A DNA stretch of 22,047 nucleotides, taken from the NCBI GenBank assembly GCA_905330235.1, contig CAJNUA010000022.1, positions 727,027 through 749,073 on the forward strand, read 5' to 3'. This DNA comes from Rotaria sp. Lineage: Eukaryota. Of this stretch, positions 5,588 to 21,800 are shown one piece after another. The notes beneath the pieces were generated by a model that saw nothing but the letters and a program-made list of their open reading frames with translations, did no database searches and had not been told where the DNA came from. The translations under genes and the position numbers were made by a program. Within the stretch, counting starts at the first letter, position 1; each line of letters begins with the position of its first letter.

Positions 5588-5920
5588 GTAAGATTTTTTT
5601 TTTTTTTTGAGTCTTATGAAGCATAAACTAAAACAAGGAGTGTTGAAGTATAAGACCAGATTATTAGACGTTGTAATGGACACTGGAGCAGCAATTTATT
5701 ATAAATTGTGACTAAAGATGTAAGAAATCAGGTTTTACTAGACCCAATTATACCCTTGACAAATCCAATCTAGAGAAAACTAATCCAGAATTTATTCATA
5801 TTACATTTAAAAAAATACATCAATACTTTTATTTACAAGAGAACCCCATCCGACTGATAATCTCTGTTTGAGTTCACATGTAGAATTCATAATGCAGATA
5901 AGAAGTCTGAAAGGATCCGT

Positions 5921-6264
5921 GTCATTAAGCCTTTTTTCTCGAGTTATAGCCATTTTACTGAACCTTCAATCTATTGTAGGATATACTGAGAAAAATTGCA
6001 ATAGGGAGTTTTGGCTTAAAATTCTCCTCAACAATAGTTCTCATGACTTTTATGGCATCCTGGAAATTTCAGCTCAAACGAATGTTTTCTTTCTGAGATA
6101 ACACATTTGCAAAAAACCGTTACTTTCACACAAGAATTCCATAAGAGGTATTGTTGAGGATAATTTCAAATTGAAACCCCTTATTGTGACTTCTCTTGTG
6201 ATATCATGTAATACGCTGACAGTTCACTGAAACGGTTATTACTCGAGAAAAAAAGCCTCATGAC
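5921..6264. mobile_element. Foldback / MITE-like element with ~40-bp terminal inverted repeats
   Basis: Left arm at 5921-5960 is gtcattaagccttttttctcgagttatagccattttactg. Right arm at 6225-6264 is cactgaaacggttattactcgagaaaaaaagcctcatgac. The right arm is the near-exact reverse complement of the left. No ORF. Lies inside the large SLC35E-like intron. Confidence 0.6.
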
Positions 6265-6464
6265 ACGAACTCTTTGAAGATTTTTATCTATACTATGAGT
6301 CCTAATCATTAGTAAAATATGAGCTCAAACGGAGGTTATCTAGCGAATGGCTTCCCTCGTTAGTTGACTCTACTAGTGTTTTGGATCATTTCGCTTCAGT
6401 TATGTTCTGATTGATATGATTTATAAGATAATTTGCTTCAGGGTACTTCTCTTTCTTTTCCGTA

Positions 6465-7775: not shown

Positions 7776-8598
7776 TGATTTTGACAAAAACGCGAAACAA
7801 TTTAGAATTTTTGCTATTTTCGTTATGTAAATTTGATTTCTTCTCGAACTTTTTATAGCTTAACGACAATATTCGGGTCTCAAAATGTAGTCAGTAGATA
7901 AATACCACTTGGCAGTGTAAAACGGTCACAAAAAACCAAAAATTTTGAGTCAGGAAAGGGGTGAAGGTATCCTTAAACCAACAAGGTTCCTGATAAATGC
8001 TTTCATGAAAACCTATATTACATATGAATCTATATGTTTGAAAATACTAGGAAATCATTGTGATCTCACACGAAGTCACTCGTCCCAATGGGTTGATATG
8101 TACTCAGCAGATAGTATAATAGGCAGAAAAAAAACAAAAAAAAAATGGGTCACAAAAGAGAGGGTTGGTACCCTTAAAACCATAGAATATTTAACTATAA
8201 TCTTCAGCTTCAGCTAGGACAACTGTTTTTTCGTAGTCTCAGTCTTGACAACTTCTCTTTCCCGCGGTCATGTACATATGTAATCGTGATAGACAATGCA
8301 TGGAATGTGAAATTTAATTGTTTATTGTTCTCAGTTATGAAAAGAGGCAATCATAAGTTTATAGATAAGCTAAAAAGGGCTCTAAAATAGTATTGATTGA
8401 ACGTTTTCAACTGATCAATCGATTTTGAATTCAAATTCTGTGCCTCAAGTAAACTCAGTGAGATATGAAAAACCTCAAAAGAATCAGTTCTCCTTAGACC
8501 ATCTGTTCAGAGTTATAGACATTGTACTAGAATTTTAGATTCTGGCTTAATATAAATTAGGAAATTGAATAATATTATTTCGATCCGAGATTTTGCTT

Positions 8599-8813
8599 AC
8601 AGATAGGCCTATTTGTCAGTAAAATGTCTTGAAAATTTGAGCTCAAGAGAATGTTTCCTTCCCAAGATATTAAAGTCTCAAAAATCACTTATATTCGATC
8701 GAAAGATGTTAGAATTTTCTGATTTTTTGAAACTTTAATGTCTTGGAAAGGATATGTTCTTTCAAATATGAAATTTTCAGAGCATTCTACTAACAAATAG
8801 ACCTATCTATGGG
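8599..8813. mobile_element. Second foldback / MITE-like element, related to 5921-6264
   Basis: Arm 8599-8646 (acagataggcctatttgtcagtaaaatgtcttgaaaatttgagctc) is the reverse complement of arm 8771-8813 (gaaattttcagagcattctactaacaaatagacctatctatgg). It shares cattttactga and gagctcaa[ag]aGAATGTTTyC blocks with the first element and with 6068-6100 and 6320-6350. Confidence 0.55.
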
Positions 8814-9148
8814 TAAAGTCTCAGATTGAAATGCTGTCATCTGATTTGTTGGTATATACAAAGCCAGACGCTAAAATTTCAGTAAAATGCCTATAACTCT
8901 GGATAGAAAGACGAAGAGAATTTATCTTTTTGGTGCCTTTTAAATCTCAATAGGGTCTACTTTATGCATAGTGTTCGAATTCAAAAGCGACAGGTCAATT
9001 GAAAACGTTTCTTCATAAGTATTGAGTATATACAATATTGGTTTTAATCGATTTGTTAAATATTTCGCTCTATTAATAATAGGAATTCATTTATGTTTCA
9101 TATTTTTTATTTTACAAACATTGTAATAATAGAATATTTTTATTTTAG

Positions 9149-9840: not shown

Positions 9841-10654
9841 AATTCACTTGTTAAATTAAAATGTCATTACAATATACAAATAGCTAAGCAATGCTTTGAG
9901 TATTGAATGTGATCTTAGTTCTACGTTTATAAAAGAAAGGTGATTGTTGATATTGATTTTCTTTTTTTTTTGCATCTGTTTCAACGCTGAAAGAAATCGT
10001 TTGATATGACTACTAAAAGTTGGCATGTGTTCAATTAATGAGAAATTGATGCTAAGTTATTTTATATTTAGTGAATTTCTTTTAGAACATCTTACATTAC
10101 AAATAAGAATTATTTCTTTTCAGAATTTAATATTTTTAAATTCAATTATAAAATAGATTTTTATTGTTGCTGAAAGAATAAGCGTAAAATATAACATTGA
10201 AGTTAAGTCATGTTTACTCAGTATTAGTAATAAAAATAATTGATTTATTTGCGATGAGTGTTTTTTTATTGAATAGCACTATTTTTTTTTTAGTTCATGT
10301 CATTCGAATAAATTTTCATGTACGTTGTATTGTCAAATCGACATAAGGATCTTATTAGCCGCAAGCAAAAAAGTAACTCAGCACTGCAGATAGGGAAGTC
10401 GAAGAGTAGTGAAGTTTCATAAAAAGGGGCACTGCTTAAAAAATTTTTAAAAACAGGGAAAAGTGTGTGAAAGAATTTCAGAATATGGGGAAGAAGTGAT
10501 TTCCTTGGTTACTCAAATATTTACATCCTCAGTACACTTTATTGTGCATGTGTCTGATGAGAATTAGTCATATTTAAAATTTCACTGTTAGGTGAAAACA
10601 CCAAAAATGTTTTTTTCTTACCACAGGGTTAAAATACTCAATGCCAGATAAGGG

Positions 10655-10731
10655 TCTTTGCGTTCTTCTCTTATTCACTCTCCTCTGAATTTGTTCTCCA
10701 ACCCTTGTTCTCTCTTTTTTTTACTTCACAG
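10655..10731 (+). promoter_or_regulatory. Polypyrimidine tract ending in CAG, about 240 nt upstream of the MVP-A ATG; candidate 3' splice acceptor (5'UTR intron or trans-splice site)
   Basis: tctttgcgttcttctcttattcactctcctctgaatttgttctccaacccttgttctctcttttttttacttcaCAG. A second site, ttttccttCAG, lies at 10933-10943, 27 nt before the ATG. Confidence 0.35.
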
Positions 10732-10969
10732 AAATAAATCAGCCTTACCCTGTGTCTATGCATTACTCGTTATTACCATTTAGACGTGCAATTTTGTTTC
10801 TGTCATTTCATAACTTTGTTGAAAATTGCTTTCTCTCTTTACTCAACCCTTTTCTTCTTATTTTTCATACACAATATATCTTGATTATGTTGACATCCTT
10901 GCTCATACATAAAAGGACCCCTATATCTTTCATTTTCCTTCAGATTCATACCACTAATAAAGAATAATA

Positions 10970-10994
10970 ATGGCAGATTCAAAAGTTACTGGTG
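10970..10994 (+). CDS. MVP: Major vault protein paralog A, exon 1 (short coding 5' exon, MADSKVTG)
   Basis: This is the only ATG that can be joined in frame to exon 2 (GTAAGA donor at 10995, 56-nt intron, phase 1). The exon-2 frame is open upstream but lacks an ATG. The start assignment is an inference. Confidence 0.5.
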
Positions 10995-11050
10995 GTAAGA
11001 ATTTTAATTTCTTCTTTTGTTCGTATTTAGTTCTACATCTTTAATTTTAG

Positions 11051-11192
11051 TTTACCGGGTTCATCCTTTTTATTATTTACATGTTCTTGATCAAAATAAA
11101 AATGTAACTCGACTTGAAGTTGGTCCTCAAACATTTGTTAAACAAGATCATGAAAAAGTTTTACTTGGGCCAGAACGAATGTTAATAATTCC
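11051..11192 (+). CDS. MVP: MVP paralog A, exon 2
   Basis: Encodes (G)VYRVHPFYYLHVLDQNKNVTRLEVGPQTFVKQDHEKVLLGPERMLIIP(P). This matches the MVP N-terminus (human [36 protein letters not shown]). Donor is GTATGT at 11193, phase 2. Confidence 0.9.
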
Positions 11193-11251
11193 GTATGTTT
11201 AAATACTTTCAATTTAATGAAAAGAAAACTATTTTTTTGAATAATATCTAG

Positions 11252-11535
11252 TCCTCGTCATTATTGTGTTATTGAAAATCCAGCTGTTCGTGACAAAAAT
11301 GGCAAAGTTGTTATCGATGCTAATGGTCAAGTTAAATTATTACATTCAGATGTTGATATTCGATTTTCTCAAGAACCATTTCCTCTTTATCCAGGTGAAA
11401 CACTTAAACAAGCCGTAACACCATTGAAAGTTATTGAACCTAATTGTGCATTACGTCTTCGTGCGGTTCTGGATTTTATTGATGATGAAGGCGAGCAATT
11501 TCGTGCTGGAGATGAATTCCTTTTTTATGGACCAG
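11252..11535 (+). CDS. MVP: MVP paralog A, exon 3
   Basis: Encodes [94 protein letters not shown](G). Human has [38 protein letters not shown]. Donor is GTTAAA at 11536, phase 1. Confidence 0.9.
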
Positions 11536-11598
11536 GTTAAAAAGAATAAATTTAAATTTTATTAGTTAATAATAAAAATTTGAATTTATTTTTTCTAG

Positions 11599-11825
11599 GA
11601 ACTTATATTCCACGTAAAGAAGTTGGTGTTGAAGAACAAATAAAAGCTGTTACTCTTAAACCAAATGAAGCTGTTCGTTTACGTGCTAAAAAGGAAATGA
11701 TCGATCGTGATGGAGTTCAACGGGAAACAGGTGAAGAATGGCTTAATCGTACTAATGGTTCATATTTACCATTAGCTTATGAAGAGGTTGTTGCAACAGT
11801 TAAAGCCTATGTATTAACTGATAAA
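11599..11825 (+). CDS. MVP: MVP paralog A, exon 4
   Basis: Encodes [76 protein letters not shown]. Donor is GTATGA at 11826, phase 0. Confidence 0.9.
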
Positions 11826-11886
11826 GTATGAGTGTTTAGAAACTGTTGAATTGGTTTTTTTTAATGATAGATTTATATTATTTTAG

Positions 11887-12012
11887 AAAGCTCTTCATGT
11901 TCGAGCCTTACGTACATTTGTTGATTCATTTAAACGTAGACGTCTTCATGGAGAAGAATGGTTAGTATATGCTAGTGATGCTGAATCATATATTCCAGAT
12001 GTTTATGAAGAG
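11887..12012 (+). CDS. MVP: MVP paralog A, exon 5
   Basis: Encodes [42 protein letters not shown]. Donor is GTAGAT at 12013. The following intron carries an (AT)n tract. Confidence 0.9.
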
Positions 12013-12016
12013 GTAG

Positions 12017-12032
12017 ATATATATATATATAT
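12017..12032. repeat. (AT)8 microsatellite inside MVP-A intron 5
   Basis: The sequence atatatatatatatat lies immediately after the GTAGAT donor. Confidence 0.85.
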
Positions 12033-12072
12033 GTTTAATTCATAGATAGAAGATAATTGGGAAAATATTTAG

Positions 12073-12183
12073 GTTGTTTGTGTTGTACCTGTAACTGTAT
12101 TAAATTCACGTCAATATTGTGTTATTCTTGATCCAGTTGGTTCCGATGGTAAACCACAACTTGGAAAGAAAAAACTTGTTAAG
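12073..12183 (+). CDS. MVP: MVP paralog A, exon 6
   Basis: Encodes [37 protein letters not shown]. Human has [26 protein letters not shown]. Donor is GTATGA at 12184. Confidence 0.9.
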
Positions 12184-12239
12184 GTATGATAAATGACAAT
12201 TATCTGATTTAATTGACTTAATCATTTTCTTTTTTGAAG

Positions 12240-12362
12240 GGAGAAAAAACATTCTTTCTTCAACCTGGTGAAAAATTAGCTAAAGGTATTCAAGATGTCT
12301 ATGTTCTTGAAGAAGATGAGGGACTTATTCTTCGATGTACTGAATCATTCAAAGAAGATGGA
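12240..12362 (+). CDS. MVP: MVP paralog A, exon 7
   Basis: Encodes [41 protein letters not shown]. Human has [34 protein letters not shown]. Donor is GTAAGT at 12363. Confidence 0.9.
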
Positions 12363-12420
12363 GTAAGTTTATTCTTTGATTTTTTTTAATCAATAATATA
12401 TCTCTTTTTGTTCATTATAG

Positions 12421-13008
12421 AAAGAATTACGTAATCCTGGTGATCGTTGGATGGTTCGAGGACCAAAAGATTATATTCCAGCTGTTGAAGCTGAAGTTGT
12501 ACTTCGTCGTAAAGCTATACCATTAGATGTTAATGAAGGAATTTATGTTCGAGATGTTAAAACTGGTAAAGTTCGATCGGTTATTGGTAGAACATATTTA
12601 TTGACTGAGAATGAAGAACTTTGGGAAAAAGAATTACCTAAACAAGTCGAACAACTTCTTAATCAAGATGCTCGATGTTTTGACGATAAATCATCACAAA
12701 CAGCACCCATACCACCAAGAGATAAATCAAAAGTTATTGCATATCGTGTTCCACATAATGCTTGTGTACAAATTTATGATTTTAAATCTAAAAAAGCCCG
12801 AATTATATTTGGTCCTGAACTTGTTATGCTTGGACCAGATGAACAATTTACAGTTTTAAATTTATCTGGTGAAAAACCAAAGGTACCAAATAAAATTCGA
12901 GCTATTTGTCTTTTAATGGGACCAGAATTTTCAAGTGATGTTGTTACAATTGAATCAAGTGATCATGCTCGACTTTCACTTAGACTTTCATATAATTGGC
13001 ATTTTGAA
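12421..13008 (+). CDS. MVP: MVP paralog A, exon 8
   Basis: ORF track 12451..13035 gives ..[120 protein letters not shown]. Donor is GTAAGA at 13009. Confidence 0.92.
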
Positions 13009-13054
13009 GTAAGAATTGTAGTATTAAGAAAATAAAACATATTTATTTTTTTAG

Positions 13055-13369
13055 ATTAATAATCGTAATGATGAAAAAGAAGTTACTCAACTTTTTTCAG
13101 TACCCGATTTTATTGGTGATTTCTGTAAAGCTGTAGCAGCTAAAATTCGTGGTACTGTTGCTGGTATTTCATTTGATGACTTTCATAAGAATTCAGCAAA
13201 AATTATTCGAACTTCCGTATTTGGTCTTGATGAAAATAAACATGTGAAAAAAAGACTTGTTTTTCCACAAAATAATTTGGTTCTTACATCAATTGATATA
13301 CAAAGTGTTGAACCAGTTGATCAAAGAACACGTGATGCACTTCAAAAGAGTGTTCAATTAGCTATTGAA
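13055..13369 (+). CDS. MVP: MVP paralog A, exon 9
   Basis: Encodes [105 protein letters not shown]. Human has ..[74 protein letters not shown]. Donor is GTAAGA at 13370. Confidence 0.92.
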
Positions 13370-13428
13370 GTAAGATAAATTCTATTGATCTTTCTTTTTT
13401 TGTAGTAAATATTAATGGAATTATTTAG

Positions 13429-13460
13429 ATTACAACAAATTCACAAGAAGCCCAAGCAAA
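13429..13460 (+). CDS. MVP: MVP paralog A, exon 10 (32-nt micro-exon, [11 protein letters not shown])
   Basis: Acceptor is attatttAG. Donor is GTAAGT at 13461, phase 2. Human has [15 protein letters not shown]. Confidence 0.85.
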
Positions 13461-13516
13461 GTAAGTCGAATCGAAGGAAAAATAAAAATATATAACTTGA
13501 ATTTTCTTTTCTCTAG

Positions 13517-13590
13517 ACATTTGGCTTCACGAACAGAACAAGAAGCAAAAGGTCATTTAGAAAGACAAAAAATTGCTGACGAAGCTGAAG
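13517..13590 (+). CDS. MVP: MVP paralog A, exon 11
   Basis: Encodes (K)HLASRTEQEAKGHLERQKIADEAE. Donor is GTAGAA at 13591, phase 1. Confidence 0.85.
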
Positions 13591-13643
13591 GTAGAATTTC
13601 ATGATATATGAAATTGAAATATTATACTTTTACATTTGTTTAG

Positions 13644-13778
13644 CCGAAAAGGAACGTCGAAATCTATTGCAACTTCAAGCTCTATCAGCTGCTGTTGAAT
13701 CCACTGGTCAATCACGTGCTGAAGCTCAATCACGAGCTGAAGCAGCTAAAATCGAGGGTGAATCTGCTGTCAGTCAAG
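13644..13778 (+). CDS. MVP: MVP paralog A, exon 12
   Basis: Encodes [45 protein letters not shown]. Human has [33 protein letters not shown]. This is the coiled-coil cap-helix region. Donor is GTATGT at 13779. Confidence 0.9.
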
Positions 13779-13842
13779 GTATGTTATATATAAATATAAT
13801 ATATTTCATCAATAAAATACGCATGTTTTTTCATTTTTATAG

Positions 13843-14066
13843 CTACACTTCGTGCAAAAGCAGCAAAGATTGAATCTGACACTGAACTATTACGTTTAAT
13901 ACAAGCACGTGAACTTGAATTAAATTATTCAAAAGTAACATCTGATTTGGAAATCGAAAAAACAAAACGATTAGCTGATATTGAAATTGAAGAATTTAAA
14001 CAACATGTTTCTGCCATCGGTCCAGAAACTATTAAAGCTATTGCTACTAGTGGGCCAGATAATCAA
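13843..14066 (+). CDS. MVP: MVP paralog A, exon 13
   Basis: Encodes [75 protein letters not shown]. Donor is GTAAGA at 14067. Confidence 0.9.
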
Positions 14067-14126
14067 GTAAGATTTGTTTTTAATAAAAAGTTTTGTTAAG
14101 ATTTACTTAATATTGTGATTGTGTAG

Positions 14127-14240
14127 GTTAAACTTCTGCAAGCTCTTGGCATTAAGTCAACTTTGATTACTGATGGACGTAGTCCAATTAATCTTTTCAA
14201 TACTGCTGTTGATTTAGTTGGTGCATCAACGAGTTCATAA
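14127..14240 (+). CDS. MVP: MVP paralog A, exon 14 (terminal)
   Basis: Encodes [37 protein letters not shown], with TAA at 14238-14240. Human has [32 protein letters not shown]. Confidence 0.9.
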
Positions 14241-14265
14241 TACGATTCGGAAGAACAAATTAAAA

Positions 14266-14271
14266 GAATAA
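14266..14271 (+). promoter_or_regulatory. AATAAA polyadenylation signal for MVP-A (a second AATAAA lies at 14278)
   Basis: A hexamer lies 26 nt past the stop codon. Confidence 0.5.
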
Positions 14272-14695
14272 AAAAACTAATAAACTTTAAAATTCATATG
14301 TCCAGTTTAGACCCGAGATTAGTCAGATTTTTAGAATAAAAGCCCATGTTTTGTTATAAGAAGAAACATAAGATTCTGTTTAATACTAATTTTTTTAATG
14401 TATTTGTGTGATCTCTAAAAAAACAAATTTTACAATCGAAATAAAATAATTTAAAAAGTTTGTTTTATATCGGTCATCTTTATTGATAGCAATAATCGAC
14501 TTAGATTCAATCAATATTTTTAAAAATTCAATTTTTCAATTAGAATGAAGTTGAAGAAATATTTCATGTGCCAAAGTAATCGATCAACTTGCCGAATTCA
14601 GTTTAACTTAGATGATAGAGGAATAAAGTAATATATCATGTTACTTTACCACAGACGAGATCGATTCTACAGGTGGTGGATAGAAATGTGCGGAA

Positions 14696-14730
14696 CCAGT
14701 CTCGGTCCTGCTCTCGGTGACCGAGACTGG
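14696..14730. other. Perfect 12-bp GC-rich stem / 11-nt loop hairpin in the convergent MVP-A/MVP-B intergenic spacer
   Basis: ccagtctcggtc-ctgctctcggt-gaccgagactgg. The arms are exact reverse complements. It is embedded in a locally GC-enriched ~120-bp island (14640-14760) in otherwise AT-rich DNA. Confidence 0.6.
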
Positions 14731-15645
14731 GACTTGGATTCGAAAAACTAAAATCAATGAATCCTAGAACTAAAAAAATTGATCCGGCATATCTTTAGAG
14801 TGACAGAGCTAAAAGGTTTGGATAGGTTCAAAAAACTTTTTCTGCTTTCATTAGTTTGATAGATTGCAGTAACACTACATGCCTATTAAAAATCTTGAAC
14901 AATCAACAAACTGACAATGTCATATTTCTTTTTATGGACAGGTCTGCTTCATGATTTAACTGCTTTTCAGTAGATTACGTCAGAAATTCTTCTTTCAAAG
15001 ATCGGAATTTAATAAGCATAAACATTCGCATGTGTTTTTGTTATTTATCACTGCTATACACTGCAAAATGTGAGTTCGAAATAACAAATACGAACCGATT
15101 TTATCTCTATACTGTAGTGTAACTACTATATACAAAAGACTATCAAGACTTGTGTTTGGCATATATTCGATCAATTTTATTTATCTATTAACAATATTTA
15201 ACATATTTTAATTGTACTAAAAGAATCATAGTTGTGAAAAGTTAGTCTTAGTCCTGCCGAGCAAAGAAAAATAGTTGGTATATCGTAACTCCTACGATCA
15301 AATGAATTCTATTTATTTGAATAGAAAAACACGAATAAATTTTCGAAATTTTGACGAGCAATGAGAAAAATGAACAACAAACTTTTCAAGGTTAAGATTA
15401 CATATCTACGGTTGCGGCTACTTTTAACCGCTTATAAATACATTTATATGACATTAAAATGAAGAAAAAGAACAATTCGGTAGTGCAAAATTCTTTCGGA
15501 TGAAAACCATCTTAGTTTATTATTCATACATGAGCTACAAAATAATTAAAGTGAAATTGTAGAATAAAATTGATAATATGAAAACAGAAAAGGACGGACA
15601 ATGTTATTGTTATTTTTTTCTCTTGAAACAAGAAACAAATTTGAC

Positions 15646-16034
15646 CTAATCTTTGTGTTCAACATGGTAGCCAGTAGGAATCTTAGAATTTTTGATTGCA
15701 GTGGAAGTTAAACCACCTAAAAGTCCTTGTCCAAAACCCATTAGATTAATAGGTGTATGTCCATCAGTAACCAACATTGATTGAAGACCAAGTGCTTGTA
15801 AAAGTTTAACTTGTGTATCTGGACCTGCAGTAGCAATCGATTGAATTGTGGATGCACCAATAGATTCAACTTGTAATTTAAATTTTTCAGTTTCAATGCT
15901 TGACATTTCACTTTTCTTTGATATTTCTAATTCATTTTGTTCACGTACAAATTTGATTTCAGCTTCACGTGCTAATTTTAAACGTGATAATTCAGCTTCA
16001 GCTTCGATTTGTGTAGCTTGAGCCTTGAGAGCAG
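15646..16034 (-). CDS. MVP: MVP paralog B, exon 8 (terminal; stop TAG at 15646-15648)
   Basis: ORF track 15646..16080 gives [128 protein letters not shown]. Confidence 0.9.
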
Positions 16035-16090
16035 CTAAATAAAGCACAACAAATAAATTTTTATTGTAAAACAAAATCATTATTCATTAC

Positions 16091-16331
16091 CTTGCTCAAC
16101 AGCTGCTTCTCCTTCAATTCGAGCTGATTCAGCACGACTTTGTGCTTCAGCTTTAGCTTGACCTGTTGATTCAACAGCAGCTGATAAAGCTTGTAATTCA
16201 AGAAGTTGTTTTCGAACTTCTTCAGCATTAGCTTCATCTTTTATACGTTGCCGTTCCAATAATCCTTTGGCCTCTTGTTCTCGGCGTGAAGCTTCATGTT
16301 TCGCAGCTGCTTCTTGTGAATTTGTTGTAAT
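16091..16331 (-). CDS. MVP: MVP paralog B, exon 7
   Basis: Encodes [80 protein letters not shown]. Donor is GTAATG, phase 1, at the same position as A intron 12. Confidence 0.88.
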
Positions 16332-16389
16332 CTAAATAATTCCATTAATATTTATTATAAAAAAGAAAGATCAACAGAGTTTATCTTAC

Positions 16390-17293
16390 TTCAATAGCTA
16401 ATTGAACACTCTTCTGAAGTGCATCACGTGTTCGTTGATCAACTGGTTCAACACTTTGTATATCAATTGATGTAATAACAAGATTATTTTGTGGAAAAAT
16501 GAATTTGTCTCTTATATGTTGATTAGCATCAAGACCAAATACTGATGCACGAATGATTTGAGCTGAATTTTTATGAAAATCATCAAATTGTGTTCCAGCA
16601 ACAGCACCACGAATACGTGATGCTATAGCTTTAGCTGCATCACCAACAAAATCTGGTACTGAAAAAAGTTTTGCTGCTTCTTTTTCATCATTAATATCAG
16701 GTATTTGAAAATGCCAATTATATGAAAGTTGTAGTGAAAGACGAGCATGATCAGCTGTTTCAATAACAATAACATCAGTAAAAAAATCTGGTCCAAGAAG
16801 TAAACAAAGTGTTTGAATTTGATTAGCTTTTTTCGGTACACTACCACTTAATGAAAGTAATGTAAAATGTTCATCTGGTCCAAGCATAACAAGTTCGGGA
16901 CCAAATATAATACGTGCTTTTTTAGCTTTATAATCATAGATTTGTACACAAGCATTATGTGGAACACGATATGTAACTAATTTTGATTTATCACGTTTAG
17001 TAAAATTTGTATTTGAAGTTGTTGTTTGTTGTTGAGATTGCGATTTATCTGATGCTTGATTACGTGTTAGAACATTTCGTTCAGCTAATGCATCACGTGA
17101 TAACAATTCCTCAACTTGTTTAGGTAATTCTTTTTGCCATAATTCTTCATCTTGTGTTAACATATACGTTTCACCAATGACTGCTCGTACACAACCAGTT
17201 TTTATGTCACGAACATATATACCTTCATTTTCATCTAGTGGCATTGCTTTTCGACGTGTAAGAACTTCAACTTGTGTTGGAGGAATATAATCA
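16390..17293 (-). CDS. MVP: MVP paralog B, exon 6 (covers A exons 8+9 without the intervening intron)
   Basis: ORF track 16381..17244 gives ..[169 protein letters not shown]. Donor is GTAAGA at 16389. Confidence 0.9.
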
Positions 17294-17344
17294 CTAAAAG
17301 TTATAATAATAATTTAAAGTTTTATTCAATAATAAATCTCTTAC

Positions 17345-17529
17345 GTTGGACCACGAATCATCCATCGATCACCGGGATTTCGATTAACATTAGCGTGTTC
17401 ATCTTTAAATTCTTCAATACATTTAAGAATAACACCTTCATCTTCACCTAATATAAAAACATCTTGAATGCCATTTTCAAGTTTTTCACCAGGTTGAAGA
17501 AAGAATGATTTTTCACCCACGACAAGTTT
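17345..17529 (-). CDS. MVP: MVP paralog B, exon 5
   Basis: Encodes [61 protein letters not shown](T). Donor is GTAAGA, phase 2. This intron position is absent from A. Confidence 0.85.
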
Positions 17530-17593
17530 CTAGAAAAAAAATTCCAATAATTCAATTTTCCCTATATGACAAAAAACAATATGTGTGACATAC

Positions 17594-17860
17594 TTTTTTT
17601 CCTAATTGTGGTTTTCCATCAGCAACTGGATCAAGTATAACACAATATTGACGAGAATTCAATGTTATTACATCAACAGCAGCAACTAATTGTTCATATA
17701 CACTAAGAATATGTGTTTCAGTGTCGGCGAGAGTTACAAGCCATTCTTCACCATTCATGCGTTCTTTACCGAAATTGTCTGTAAAAGTTTTTAATGCACG
17801 AATATGAAGAGCTTTTTTATCGGTTAATACAAAAGCATTTTCTACAGAAACAACAGTTTC
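17594..17860 (-). CDS. MVP: MVP paralog B, exon 4
   Basis: Encodes [89 protein letters not shown]. Donor is GTATGT. It partly overlaps ORF track 17552..17758. Confidence 0.88.
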
Positions 17861-17912
17861 CTAAAAATTTCAAAATTTTTAATTAAAATATGCAAATAGA
17901 ATTTAAACTTAC

Positions 17913-18221
17913 ATATGCAAGAGGTAAATAAGCACCGGTTTTTTTAACTAACCATTCTTCACCAGTAACACGATGTTGACCTGCACGATCAATAATTTCT
18001 TTTTTTGCACAAAGTCGTATAGCTTGATTAGGACCAATAACTGTAGCTCGAATTTGTTCCTCAACACTAACTTCTTTACGAGGAATATAAGTAGCTGGTC
18101 CTTCGAATAACCATTCATCACCAGCACGACGTTGTTCCTTTGCTGTTTCATCTTCAAAATCGAGTACAGCTTTTAAACGTAATGCTGAATTAGCAGGAAC
18201 AACTTTTAATGGAGTAACAGG
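17913..18221 (-). CDS. MVP: MVP paralog B, exon 3
   Basis: ORF track 17883..18287 gives [103 protein letters not shown], then GTAAGT. There is no intron at the A exon3/4 site. The ORF-track frame and my base counting differ by 1 nt near 18181-18240, so the start is ±1. Confidence 0.85.
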
Positions 18222-18295
18222 CTGAACAAAACCAAAAGAATTATATATCAAATTAGTTTTATTTCTGTCAATTGAAAAAAGTTTCAACTTTATAC

Positions 18296-18464
18296 CTGAC
18301 GAAGAATTTCACCGGGATAAAGAGGAAATGGTGCTTGATCAGGTTGAGCAAGACGAATATCCAAATCAGCATGAATAAGCTTTGCTTGTCCATTTTTATC
18401 AAATTGAACATCTCCAGCTTCATTACGTACTACGGGTGATTCAATAACACAATAATGGCGTGGT
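18296..18464 (-). CDS. MVP: MVP paralog B, exon 2
   Basis: Encodes [56 protein letters not shown]. Donor is GTATAA. This intron has no counterpart in paralog A. Confidence 0.85.
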
Positions 18465-18524
18465 CTAAATTATTCAAATCATTATTTTCTTTGTTTGTTT
18501 TTTTTATGTAACAAATTTACGTAC

Positions 18525-18715
18525 GGTACTGTAATCATCTTTTCTGGTCCAACAGTGACTGTTTCATTATCTTGCTTAATAAATGTTTTTGGACCGATTT
18601 CGAGTCGTGTAACATTTGTATTTTGATCCAAAACATGAATATAATAATAAGGAGGAATTCGATAGAGTGGACCAGAACCACTTTTATTATCAGTTGTAGC
18701 TGTTGTTTTACTCAT
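18525..18715 (-). CDS. MVP: Major vault protein paralog B, exon 1
   Basis: ATG at 18715 (minus strand). Encodes [64 protein letters not shown](P). Donor is GTACGT, phase 2, at the same position as the A exon2/3 junction. ORF track 18482..18715. Confidence 0.9.
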
Positions 18716-18858
18716 CGTATGTTTATAACTGTTGGTTTGCTAGTAACAATCTAGACAAAAAGAACGTTGATGTGCTTTTATAAACTGAAAAAATAAAGAA
18801 TATGATATTGCATGCTAAATGATTAAGTATTTTTCAAATCATTGTGCAAGTTTGCCCT

Positions 18859-18893
18859 CTGAAAGAGAAAGGAAGAGAAAAAAAGCGAGACAA
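18859..18893 (-). promoter_or_regulatory. Polypyrimidine-CAG acceptor-like site, about 145 nt upstream of the MVP-B ATG (minus strand)
   Basis: Minus strand reads gtctcgctttttttctcttcctttctctttCAG. A second site, attctttattttttCAG, lies at 18785-18801. Confidence 0.35.
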
Positions 18894-21800
18894 AATCTAT
18901 GTTTCACTCTCTTGTGTGCCTTGATGTTCTTGCACAATCGCGTGTTTTTTTTCCAAGTTGTTTGCTTATCACCATATCGATAGCATAGGAATGAGTAAAT
19001 ATTTTTTCAAGCCTGATTCATTATGGGAAAGAGAATTACATTTGAAGGGAAAATTTATAAATCATTCATGTGGGTAAAGTTTTTTGATAACTACAAATCA
19101 ATGTTAAATAAAGAAAATTTCAAAACAATTTGTAATCAATAAATAAAAAAGTTCTTAGTGTCTGACGTACGTAGATTAAAATTAAAGAATATTTAACAAA
19201 CGTAGACATGCAATATATGAAGGTCAATTTGACATATTATTTAGAAAAAACTTCATCCTTTCACATACATAGTACAGGGCACTTTACATAATCAATTACA
19301 ATGATTAAAATCTATTCAAGAAGAATGTTATATTCTGTGGCCCGTGAAAAACTATACATTGTTCATATATCAATGCTTACTTATCAATCTTTACAACAAC
19401 AAGCCCGTTCAAAAATCACAGCAGATGATTGAGTATTATTATTATAAGCTAACACTATATGTTCATAAGTATTGGATGAGAACTCACCATCCAAAACACA
19501 ATATTTTGCTCCAGTTTTTGATTTTTCATAAGTGTATATGAGGTGATCTAAACATTGATGCTATATGTAAACATAAATGTTTAACTGACCAGAGTTCATG
19601 ATGTCTATCGATTGAGGACTGTATGAATTACACACAGACATACACTAGTAATGTAGCGATGCTTCTTGTTATTTTTAAATAAAACTATTCTCGAAACTTT
19701 TTGAACAGTCCTTGTGTTCATCATCTTTTCTATAATAGACTATCTGGAACTGATATGTTTAAAAATATATGAAACAATTCAACTGTAGCAGAGAATATTA
19801 ACTTCTTACTCCCTGACACTAATCCAATATGATTGGTGTTGAGTAAGCCACAGAAATCACTTATGCATATGCTGAAATATGACCCTTATATGGTTAAATT
19901 TAGGTGAAGTCATTTCAGTGTGACATGCTACAAATGACTCATTCCTCTTTAATTACATGAGAACTGAATTTATTGTGATTTCGATTTGTTTGTGGGTTTT
20001 TTTTGCAGTGATTTTGTCCGTATAAAGCTGGACATCAACTTGTCATGAATTATCTTTTGAAAAATAAGTCATTTCCGTAGGGAGGGGGAGGAATAATATA
20101 TAGTTAGACACTTGAAAATATGACTACTTTTCTGATTGAAGTCAAATCTTTGATTTCTACGATCGTGTCAGACTTATTAGTCTTCATGTTTTTTTTTACA
20201 ACATGGAATTACTATTGATTCGCAAGCTTGAGAATTGAAAATATGCATATTCAATACTTGTGGCGATAACTGTTTCTGTTTAAGGAGTAAAATTAAATAT
20301 AATAAATTATGTGCATTCATTCGGACGAGTGATAAACGGCTCGCCCGATTCAATCGAGTAGAAGATTCCTTAATAGCTAGTAGAGACAAGCTTTTCTTCA
20401 CCAGGCGATCTGAATTGTTCTGTGTCTTTTATATGTTTTGTGTCATAAATGAAACACTTTTTACTGATGTTGAAGACTACTACTGTAATGGGACACATGT
20501 CAGAATCCTCTATCAAGTGAAAATTTATCATATCATACTGAATATATTGTATCAATTCACCTTGACACCAAGTTATGTTATCGAAACAAAATCAAATAAT
20601 GATTTACACAGTGCTTCATAAGCTCTGAAATTCGACAAAAATTAGTGTATATACAGACCGGGGATGATCTTTGACTGAATGTATTTATACGAGATTTTAG
20701 TAATCGTGTCGATGTTTCAAATGATGCAATATTTAGTGACATATTCTCTTGCATGAATAGTAGCATTCATATAGGAAACTAATATTTAGTTGTTCAAAAA
20801 CCGATCAACAAGAGTTCTTGGTTTTCTTTTATTGAGCTGACGAACGAATGTGATATAAAAAGTAGAAAAGCAATACGTAGTTGTCACAATCGGTTAATCG
20901 AAAGATATCATTAGCCACTGATCAGATGATTACTCAGATTATATTCTGAACAAATGGTTCAAGTTCAAAAAGAAACTAAGGTGCATGAATACACCATATG
21001 TCCAACAAAACAACACTCCATAGAAAGAAGAACTTACATTTTGCAAACAGTGTCCATATCTTCCCCTGATTTTTAGCTGTTTAGTTCGCATGTAGTTTTA
21101 CTGATCATTTGAACAATGGTCTAATAATAGTCACAAATAGAAGAACAAAGTAAGTACTCATCAATTTCTACTGTTTTGTTTATTATTATAAATATTTCGG
21201 TTCCATGTAACTGTCTTTCTCACTCCGTAGTTGTTTTCGTATTTTTCACAGCATTTTTTAATTAAATGTCTCGTTAGTCAACTAGATTACAAAAAGAAAA
21301 AAATTATTCCGAACACTAGTGCTATTATTAATATCGTCAAAATCCTAGTTGAACTGTATCTGATATTGGAAACTTCCTGGAACAATCAGACAATTTTCTG
21401 AATCTAAGTCGACATACTTTACTGCACAAGATTCGTTATATATTGGCAAGAGGATGAATTTGTGATAGAAAAAGGTCTGGTATACCACGAGCTATTGCAG
21501 CTTGACATTATAGAAAAACTGTATTTAAAAAAAAGCTAATCTCAGGAATGTTTCAGTAAAACTATGAAGAAATGGGTGAAAAACATCAGCATCTTCAGTT
21601 TATAAAGTTACAAAAGCAGCTAGCTTAAAATGGTTTAAAATATTATAACAAAAAAATTGGCACATTACAATAAGATGTAGCGCATTAAATTTGCTATGAC
21701 GTTAAGAAAAAATTTGATATTACAAAAAATTCGAAGAATTCCATGTGGAATAAAGTTGAAAATACTGACTTTTACGGTAAGTTTACTTTAGAATCATTGT

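Follow-up and report, generated by a model that had tools for sequence, protein, structure and literature searches.

How can two paralogous genes that have been diverging for a very long time keep one short segment nearly identical, not only in its exons but also in the intron that the exons enclose? This question is raised by a window of 22,047 nucleotides (the whole stretch of DNA analysed here) from the bdelloid rotifer Rotaria sp. 'Silwood-2', which contains two MVP genes, referred to as A and B. By comparing the two genes with each other and with their counterparts in other bdelloids, we arrived at an explanation that is very probably correct: the segment would be an island of concerted evolution, produced by recurrent, short-patch, non-reciprocal interlocus gene conversion between ancient, adjacent and convergent MVP paralogs.

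The convergent MVP genes and the segment they share

The window is AT-rich (GC about 0.31), and its introns are of the GT..AG type, with lengths of 46-74 nt. Gene models of A and B were obtained by joining exons at GT..AG splice sites into one open frame; exons were searched for by tblastn, with a human MVP sequence used only as a guide. Paralog A (10970..14240, plus strand) has 14 exons and 13 introns of 46-64 nt and encodes 839 aa, and paralog B (15646..18715, minus strand), which lies convergent (tail-to-tail) with A, has 8 exons and 7 introns and encodes 884 aa. Both models were confirmed by their open frames and by the public annotation of the same locus, which lists products of 884 and 839 aa, and the B translation was 100% identical to the annotated protein P0001 (Rotaria sp. 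Silwood2). The Pfam families Vault, Vault_2, Vault_3, Vault_4 and MVP_shoulder scored far over the cut-off in both A and B, so that the two products have the vault repeats and the shoulder domain by which the MVP family is assigned. Among the matches of B, non-rotifer metazoan MVPs show 67-71% identity to it. A and B are intact MVP genes.

Overall, A and B share 66% protein identity and 71% coding-nucleotide identity, and only three intron positions are common to both genes (A-I2/B-I1, A-I9/B-I6 and A-I12/B-I7). The gene order Sad1_UNC, B, A, TPT transporter, with B and A pointing toward each other, recurs across Rotaria loci: it was found in other Silwood-2 individuals (L001-L003; L004 has B only), in Rotaria sp. 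'Silwood-1' (L005), in R. sordida (L008-L010) and in R. socialis (L014), as well as at ohnologous loci of Silwood-2 (L011), Silwood-1 (L020) and R. sordida (L021). Didymodactylos carnosus (L016) also has a convergent MVP pair with an A-type intron. Because Didymodactylos represents the deepest bdelloid branch sampled (PMC7943196), the presence of the pair in this genus means that the A/B duplication is very old. Synonymous identity between A and B outside the islands described here is about 0.62, which is near the divergence between Rotaria and Didymodactylos orthologues. A and B are thus old paralogs. In Adineta steineri (L013), B is present and tblastn detected no A within 10 kb, so this locus was usable as a B outgroup only; R. 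magnacalcarata, R. macrura and A. ricciae lay outside the comparison set. An apparent presence/absence polymorphism of gene A in Silwood-1 (L006, and L007 at a contig end) was rejected, as the scaffold has a gap, or the contig breaks, next to an intergenic inverted repeat.

Pairwise nucleotide alignment of A and B returned a mosaic of identity, as had been noticed when the window was first interpreted from its letters alone (hereafter, the sequence-only reading). In the tract, A 13260..13451 (plus strand) aligns with B 16499-16309 (16309..16499, minus strand), and 182 of 192 columns match (94.8%), the exceptions being nine substitutions and one 1-nt indel; beside the tract, identity is 75% in the upstream exon sequence and 67% downstream. 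The core of the tract, A 13284-13451 against B 16475-16309 (16309-16475), has 7 differences in 168 nt, corresponding to 95.8% identity. The sequence-only reading had located the near-identity at 13265-13455 in A, which holds apart from the last four nucleotides (13452-13455), and at 16335-16525 in B, which is about 26 nt too high. It had also estimated about 70% identity outside the tract, in agreement with the flanking values. The tract is not the sole elevated region, and the upstream island 12721-12845 discussed below had been missed. The inverted copies are separated by a spacer of 2857 nt (13452..16308) made up of the 3' portions of A and B together with the intergenic region.

In A, the tract runs from the end of exon 9 through the whole of intron 9 into exon 10, of which it takes in the first 23 nt; the match of these 23 nt with B had likewise been correctly noticed. 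The peptide encoded by the tract corresponds to A residues 611-655, at the junction of the shoulder and the cap helix, and reads ITTNSQEA after the intron. Near-identity extends to synonymous sites, as had been claimed: at conserved degenerate residues, 39 of 44 codons in the tract are identical, versus 244 of 390 in the 5' and 3' parts of the genes (Fisher p = 2e-4). A scan with a 44-codon window over the flagged tract gave p = 0.006, and a 30-codon window scan statistic applied to A and B of the window alone was not significant after correction (p = 0.11).

The intron within the tract gave a stronger signal. The shared phase-0 intron, A-I9 (13370..13428, 59 nt, plus strand) and B-I6 (16332..16389, minus strand; 58 nt, and not the 57 nt first given), is homogenised between the two genes, with 54 of 59 positions identical. 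This value is about 7 sd over the other A x B intron pairs (n = 90), which have a mean identity of 0.596 (sd 0.045, maximum 0.71), and the remaining two pairs at shared positions reach 0.61 and 0.63. The conservation of this intron, as first noticed, was upheld. The exon signal alone is modest, and the case is carried by the intron and by the cross-species data.

Grouping by locus, tract boundaries and a second island

Within the tract, paralogs of one genome are closer to each other than to their orthologues, and the flanks follow the gene tree. A-B intron identity within a locus is 0.92 in Silwood-2, 1.00 in Silwood-1, 0.98 in R. sordida L010 and 0.94 at the Silwood-2 ohnologous locus; orthologous versions of the tract intron are 0.71-0.88 identical. 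In neighbour-joining (NJ) analysis of the tract, A and B of the same locus grouped together with bootstrap values of 80% in Silwood-2, 98% in Silwood-1, 100% at the ohnologous locus and 100% in R. socialis, and R. sordida A grouped with the L010 B copy at 96%. In the NJ tree of the remaining CDS, A separates from B at 98%. In quartet site patterns of the window and the ohnologous locus, the ratio of gene-specific to locus-specific sites was 1:4 in the tract exons and 323:12 in the rest of the gene (p = 1.6e-5); the corresponding ratios for the window and Didymodactylos were 2:13 and 138:47 (p = 3.6e-6). Same-locus A and B have lineage-specific substitutions and indels in common inside the tract, and this co-evolution of the two genes was seen in five loci. 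A and B of Didymodactylos have a common AGT to TCT switch at one serine codon.

The extent of homogenisation differs among loci. At the ohnologous loci, A' equals B' in the intron only in Silwood-2; the A' and B' introns of Silwood-1, like those of R. sordida, are unrelated to each other. Homogenisation in Didymodactylos is found in the exon part only, with introns that are unalignable, and the introns of R. socialis are weakly related (0.71); homogenisation of the intron is therefore not universal. The derived states common to A and B differ by lineage, which means that the events were independent. As recorded in the assemblies, such events are shown for Silwood-2, Silwood-1, R. sordida and the Silwood-2 ohnologous locus and, longer ago, for R. 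socialis. In Silwood-2, about 7 private differences per 168 nt have arisen since the last homogenisation; examples, judged against the other copies, are located at 13325, 13402 and 13405 in A and at 13345 and 13384 in B. Given this number, the Silwood-2 homogenisation is not very recent, and it probably took place after the split from Silwood-1 and R. sordida.

With regard to lifestyle, recent intron-level homogenisation was observed in the desiccating clade (Silwood-1, Silwood-2 and R. sordida) and an old trace in the non-desiccating R. socialis, the classification of Rotaria species as desiccating or non-desiccating being taken from the literature (PMC7943196). This contrast is one phylogenetically confounded comparison, and hence no conclusion was drawn from it.

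The cross-match between A and B ends at one and the same base in every locus, A-gene position 2482, which is window position 13451. Nine nucleotides past this 3' end lies the A-specific intron 10 (13461..13516, plus strand), a 56-nt heterology that all A-type genes carry, as does D, and that all B-type genes lack: in every A-type copy, GT follows directly on ..GCAAA(G), and every B-type copy reads through. On the 5' side there is a homology cliff (13233..13283, plus strand), in which a protein segment has diverged (13 mismatches in 27 nt) and three gene-specific sites follow. These sites (13277, 13279 and 13283), which include an L/I amino-acid difference, are A-versus-B differences fixed in the main-locus copies of Rotaria, and two of the three are also seen in the ohnologous copies; the conversion core was therefore taken to start at 13284. 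The A-specific intron 8 (13009..13054, plus strand), which B reads through, divides the collinear block that contains the tract (13055-13460) from the block upstream.

A second island, R1, is located 430 nt upstream of the tract, where A 12721..12845 (plus strand) is 92% identical to B 16992-16868 (16868..16992, minus strand). Locus-specific sites in R1 were enriched in comparisons with the ohnologous locus, R. socialis and Didymodactylos (p = 6.5e-5 to 2.6e-3). R1 has undergone no conversion since the split of the three close Rotaria species, and it appears to be a second, older conversion island that behaves like the tract. A permutation scan detected raised synonymous identity over the whole of 12721-13435 (126 of 150 codons, p = 5e-5).

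Gene conversion at this locus would begin with a break or nick in one copy, for the repair of which the inverted copy, 2.9 kb distant on the same or the sister chromatid, would serve as template, possibly via synthesis-dependent strand annealing or heteroduplex repair. Amino-acid constraint on the most conserved MVP peptide may keep baseline identity sufficient for homologous pairing, and each conversion would reset the silent sites and the intron, so that the island remains recombination-competent. The coincidence of positions suggests that heteroduplex extension halts at the two cliffs, intron 10 on the 3' side and the diverged segment on the 5' side. The ends of the tract abut the 56-nt heterology and the mismatch-dense block, and the 168-nt core falls within the known range, as mean tract lengths of 50 to several hundred bp have been reported for interlocus conversion (PMC3924818). 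The rate of interlocus conversion is known to depend on identity and uninterrupted homology, and compact introns are often included (PMC3924818, PMC3966223). A signature of GC-biased gene conversion was considered and rejected because GC3 is not raised in the tract (0.07/0.05 for A/B versus 0.10/0.11 outside, in a small sample); such a bias is not required by the gene-conversion explanation.

It is conceivable, though rather doubtful, that homogenisation at the shoulder/cap-helix junction is no mere by-product of homology but has been retained by selection, with A and B (as well as A' and B') co-assembling into mixed vaults in which the lateral-contact segment must be identical, and that exchange has also reached the ohnologous loci, which lie on other chromosomes. 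Intron 9 is the only intron that is still alignable between the A/B and A'/B' loci (0.73, versus 0.29-0.56 for the others). If this were true, there would be an MVP network of four or more members with one co-evolving module, and its host would be a putatively asexual, desiccation- and radiation-tolerant animal with stress-induced MVP genes (PMC10809525). In Adineta vaga, MVP genes were reported to be induced by radiation and rehydration (PMC10809525).

Direction of exchange and rival explanations

Information about the direction of exchange was provided by two R. sordida assemblies, L008 (individual RSOR408, GCA_905250875.1) and L010 (GCA_905250125.1). Their B genes differ in 21 alignment columns over 3.09 kb, and 17 of these columns (about 12 of 16 mutational events) are within 50 nt of the tract intron. 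The L010 B intron matches the R. sordida A intron at 0.98, whereas L008 B has retained a different one (0.77); between the two assemblies, the A intron does not differ. For this one event only, the assemblies thus show a non-reciprocal transfer from A to B that left the donor A unchanged. The event spans no less than 50 nt and no more than about 134 nt. Inside the patch, the L010 B copy has one C where A has T, so that its tract either is discontinuous or has mutated since. The event is still polymorphic and, with two assemblies, represents either alleles within an animal or a difference between animals. The sequence-only reading, correct as far as it went, had proposed a recent non-reciprocal exchange between the inverted copies; non-reciprocity was substantiated by the R. 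sordida event, and the notion of one recent event gave way to repeated, independent exchange in several lineages.

Crossover between inverted repeats that lie 2.9 kb from each other is a classical route to inversion, and most of the events are too old for reciprocity to be scored. Reciprocal recombination, in which the inverted repeats would cross over again and again (as inversion flip-flop or as double crossovers), is nonetheless a very improbable source of the pattern. The L010 B gene gained the A intron, yet A itself is no different from A in the other assembly, and reciprocal exchange does not make both copies alike. In every species, the tract is flanked on either side by intact A-specific introns and gene-specific sites; a single crossover would have yielded chimeras with an A head and a B tail, and hence none has been fixed.

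Nucleotide-level purifying selection without any exchange, acting on a splicing enhancer, RNA structure, an intronic small RNA or codon preference, would be in keeping with the position of the tract, which encodes the most conserved MVP peptide and overlaps those 45-aa windows that are best conserved in a set of 12 non-rotifer metazoan MVPs. Exon identity is also high, at 0.89-0.98 among all A/B-type copies across bdelloids. However, orthologous synonymous identity did not differ significantly between the tract and the rest of the gene for A of the window and R. socialis (0.81 vs 0.76), B of the window and Adineta steineri (0.84 vs 0.83), or A of the window and Didymodactylos (0.61 vs 0.58). 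The tract intron is 0.75-0.86 identical between close species, within the range of other introns (0.56-0.92), and it is unalignable in R. socialis, Adineta and Didymodactylos, which disfavours purifying selection. Lineage-specific indels and substitutions common to A and B are not a product of constraint. In the same genome, a further convergent MVP pair, C/D (L019), encodes nearly the same peptide, with three substitutions each, but has no tract: C and D are 76% identical, and C/D are 79-84% identical to A/B. These data suggest that silent positions, in synonymous sites and in the intron, were homogenised without constraint as the cause, and we consider purifying selection highly unlikely as the explanation. 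The earlier argument that conservation of the intron excludes simple purifying selection was sustained, in that orthologous synonymous and intronic rates in the tract are not reduced. A structured RNA hosted by the intron or overlapping the exons was also rejected as a candidate; an Rfam scan of window positions 10500-19000 at E <= 1 gave no match, and the intron is not conserved across genera.

An assembly or consensus artefact, in which reads of the two copies were collapsed or cross-polished to give false identity, seems just as unlikely. All compared sequences are consensus assemblies, mostly short-read and from single individuals (PMC7943196), the length of the tract is about that of one Illumina read, and the Silwood-1 assemblies L006 and L007 break near an inverted repeat at the MVP locus. 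Nevertheless, three separately assembled Silwood-2 individuals (RPSE411, RPSE812 and RPSE809; L001-L003) gave the same tract, as did a fourth Silwood-2 assembly that contains B only (L004). The sole exception among the four was an extra T in the poly-T of the A intron of L003, and the 10 A/B differences were preserved. A matching intron sequence cannot be invented by an assembler if the true introns differ, and several species, as well as 10x-based assemblies, show the pattern with lineage-specific sequences that differ among them. Moreover, unconverted controls are found within the same assemblies, namely R. sordida L008 B, the ohnologous B' of Silwood-1 and R. sordida, and C/D.

If one ancient conversion (or a mosaic partial re-duplication) had been followed by slow divergence without recurrence, the identical 3' boundary seen in all loci would be expected, but this scenario can be dismissed with near certainty. 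It predicts grouping by gene whereas the tract groups by locus with 80-100% bootstrap, the derived indels common to A and B differ in each lineage, and both converted and unconverted states are found within R. sordida, as they are at the ohnologous loci when three species are compared.

Significance and comparison with known systems

Recurrent interlocus gene conversion, as the preferred explanation, would imply that a homology island of less than 200 bp in old, approximately 70%-identical paralogs can sustain ectopic conversion for a very long time. Independent conversion of the island has occurred in four or more Rotaria lineages or loci, and weaker traces are seen in the deepest branch of bdelloids in the sample. 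Homologous-recombination repair in bdelloids may thus use short, diverged ectopic templates besides allelic ones. Residues ~447-655 of A/B will bring mixed histories into any MVP tree or dS estimate in which they are included, and the island is a candidate assay locus for ectopic conversion after desiccation or irradiation. General knowledge of gene conversion is left unchanged, and nothing new is added on vault function. A limited literature search found no report of gene conversion between MVP paralogs.

Interlocus conversion between adjacent inverted paralogs has been described in Caenorhabditis for the hsp-16 modules, hsp70-7/-8, col-12/col-13 and act-1/act-3 (PMC3966223). Like the MVP genes, these are adjacent duplicates, with tail-to-tail and head-to-head arrangements included; their tracts are short (>191 bp as reported there) and run through compact introns of ~50-65 nt, and each paralog resembles its partner in the same species more than its own orthologue (PMC3966223). 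Unlike those pairs, the rotifer MVP genes are homogenised over only ~6% of an old, ~70%-identical pair, one island was converted independently in several lineages, and the host is a bdelloid rotifer. The landscape of inverted repeats has also been treated in the literature (PMC12563786).

In bdelloids, allelic or homologous conversion and loss of heterozygosity have been recognised as a major force in genome evolution (PMC5916493, PMC8494291, PMC7749112). The MVP case belongs to the same clade and presumably depends on the same homologous-recombination machinery, but the MVP exchange is ectopic, its partners being ancient paralogs that lie on one chromosome.

Mosaic concerted evolution with fixed boundaries is familiar in vertebrates from the human gamma-globin genes HBG1/HBG2 and the primate L/M opsins. 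In these systems, as in the MVP pair, conversion recurs in part of the gene and homogenises introns, and either sequence heterology or selection on diverged sites determines where the boundaries fall. The globin and opsin pairs are direct tandem repeats that are much younger or more similar overall, whereas the MVP pair is inverted and very old. The palindromes of the human Y chromosome likewise undergo intrachromosomal, non-reciprocal conversion from arm to arm across a spacer, as the MVP pair does. The arms of those palindromes measure tens to hundreds of kb and are >99.9% identical, and the MVP 'arm' is an island of 170-190 bp in diverged genes. Taken in this company, the MVP case is textbook interlocus gene conversion, or mosaic concerted evolution.

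A second conversion island, and intron 9 at the ohnologous loci

Besides the main conversion tract around the shared intron of the two convergent MVP paralogs, A and B, a second stretch of high A-B identity (92%), designated R1, was found in the region of the Vault_3 repeats (window positions A 12721-12845 and B 16868-16992). Locus-specific shared states were over-represented in R1 relative to the ohnolog, R. socialis and Didymodactylos, and zero conversion events were detected after the split of Silwood-2, Silwood-1 and R. sordida. R1 is a second conversion island, older than the main tract. Synonymous identity between A and B was moderately elevated throughout window 12721-13435.

When A was compared with the A' genes of the ohnologous loci in Silwood-2, Silwood-1 and R. 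sordida (L011, L020 and L021), intron 9 (window 13370-13428) was the sole alignable intron, with an identity of 0.73 versus 0.29-0.56 for the remaining A introns; against its orthologue in R. socialis, intron 9 reached an ordinary identity of 0.51. The likeness of intron 9 across loci may reflect inter-ohnolog, that is, inter-chromosomal, exchange within the main-tract island.

Distribution of gene A and of recent homogenization

In a comparison of the window, L005 (Silwood-1), L008 and L010 (both R. sordida) and L014 (R. socialis), recent A-B homogenization at the intron level was observed in the three desiccation-tolerant Rotaria species, whereas the non-desiccating R. socialis showed only an old trace, with an A-B intron identity of 0.71; this represents one contrast, confounded by phylogeny. 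Adineta steineri (L013 10001-23063) has the Sad1_UNC-B arrangement, with no A-type MVP gene in the 10 kb downstream; A was either lost or relocated in this lineage.

Repeats near the MVP genes

The Silwood-1 B-A intergenic region contains an inverted repeat of 164 nt, 91% identical (L005 13683-13846 and 13958-14121). Two more Silwood-1 assemblies are interrupted by a gap or break exactly at this repeat (L006 13880-13946; end of L007), and gene A therefore seems to be missing from them, an absence that is only apparent.

The span of the neighboring TPT/EamA transporter gene includes foldback-like palindromes and a diverged direct repeat (window 5881-6304, 6457-6962/7274-7821 and 8400-9009). A 73-74% copy of the palindrome at 8400-9009 occurs elsewhere in Silwood-2, at an unlinked locus (L018 1845-2092), and R. 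sordida and Silwood-1 show weaker similarity to it at the orthologous positions; the palindrome is probably an old dispersed element of the foldback or MITE type.

Gene structure and additional MVP genes

The structures of A (10970-14240; 13 introns) and B (15646-18715; 7 introns) are strongly unlike, with three intron positions in common. A-I6 (12184-12239) and B-I4 (17593-17530) are offset by 12 nt in the coding sequence; either independent gain or intron sliding could account for this.

At least seven MVP genes are present in Silwood-2 (A, B, A', B', B3, C and D), with those outside the window located at L019 (8001-11090, plus strand; 13320-16935, minus strand), L018 (8001-11821) and L011. 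C and D form an additional convergent pair (L019), between which no conversion tract was seen. After the ..QEAxAK motif, D has an A-type intron and C resembles B; the convergent layout may therefore be older than the duplication that gave rise to the two loci.
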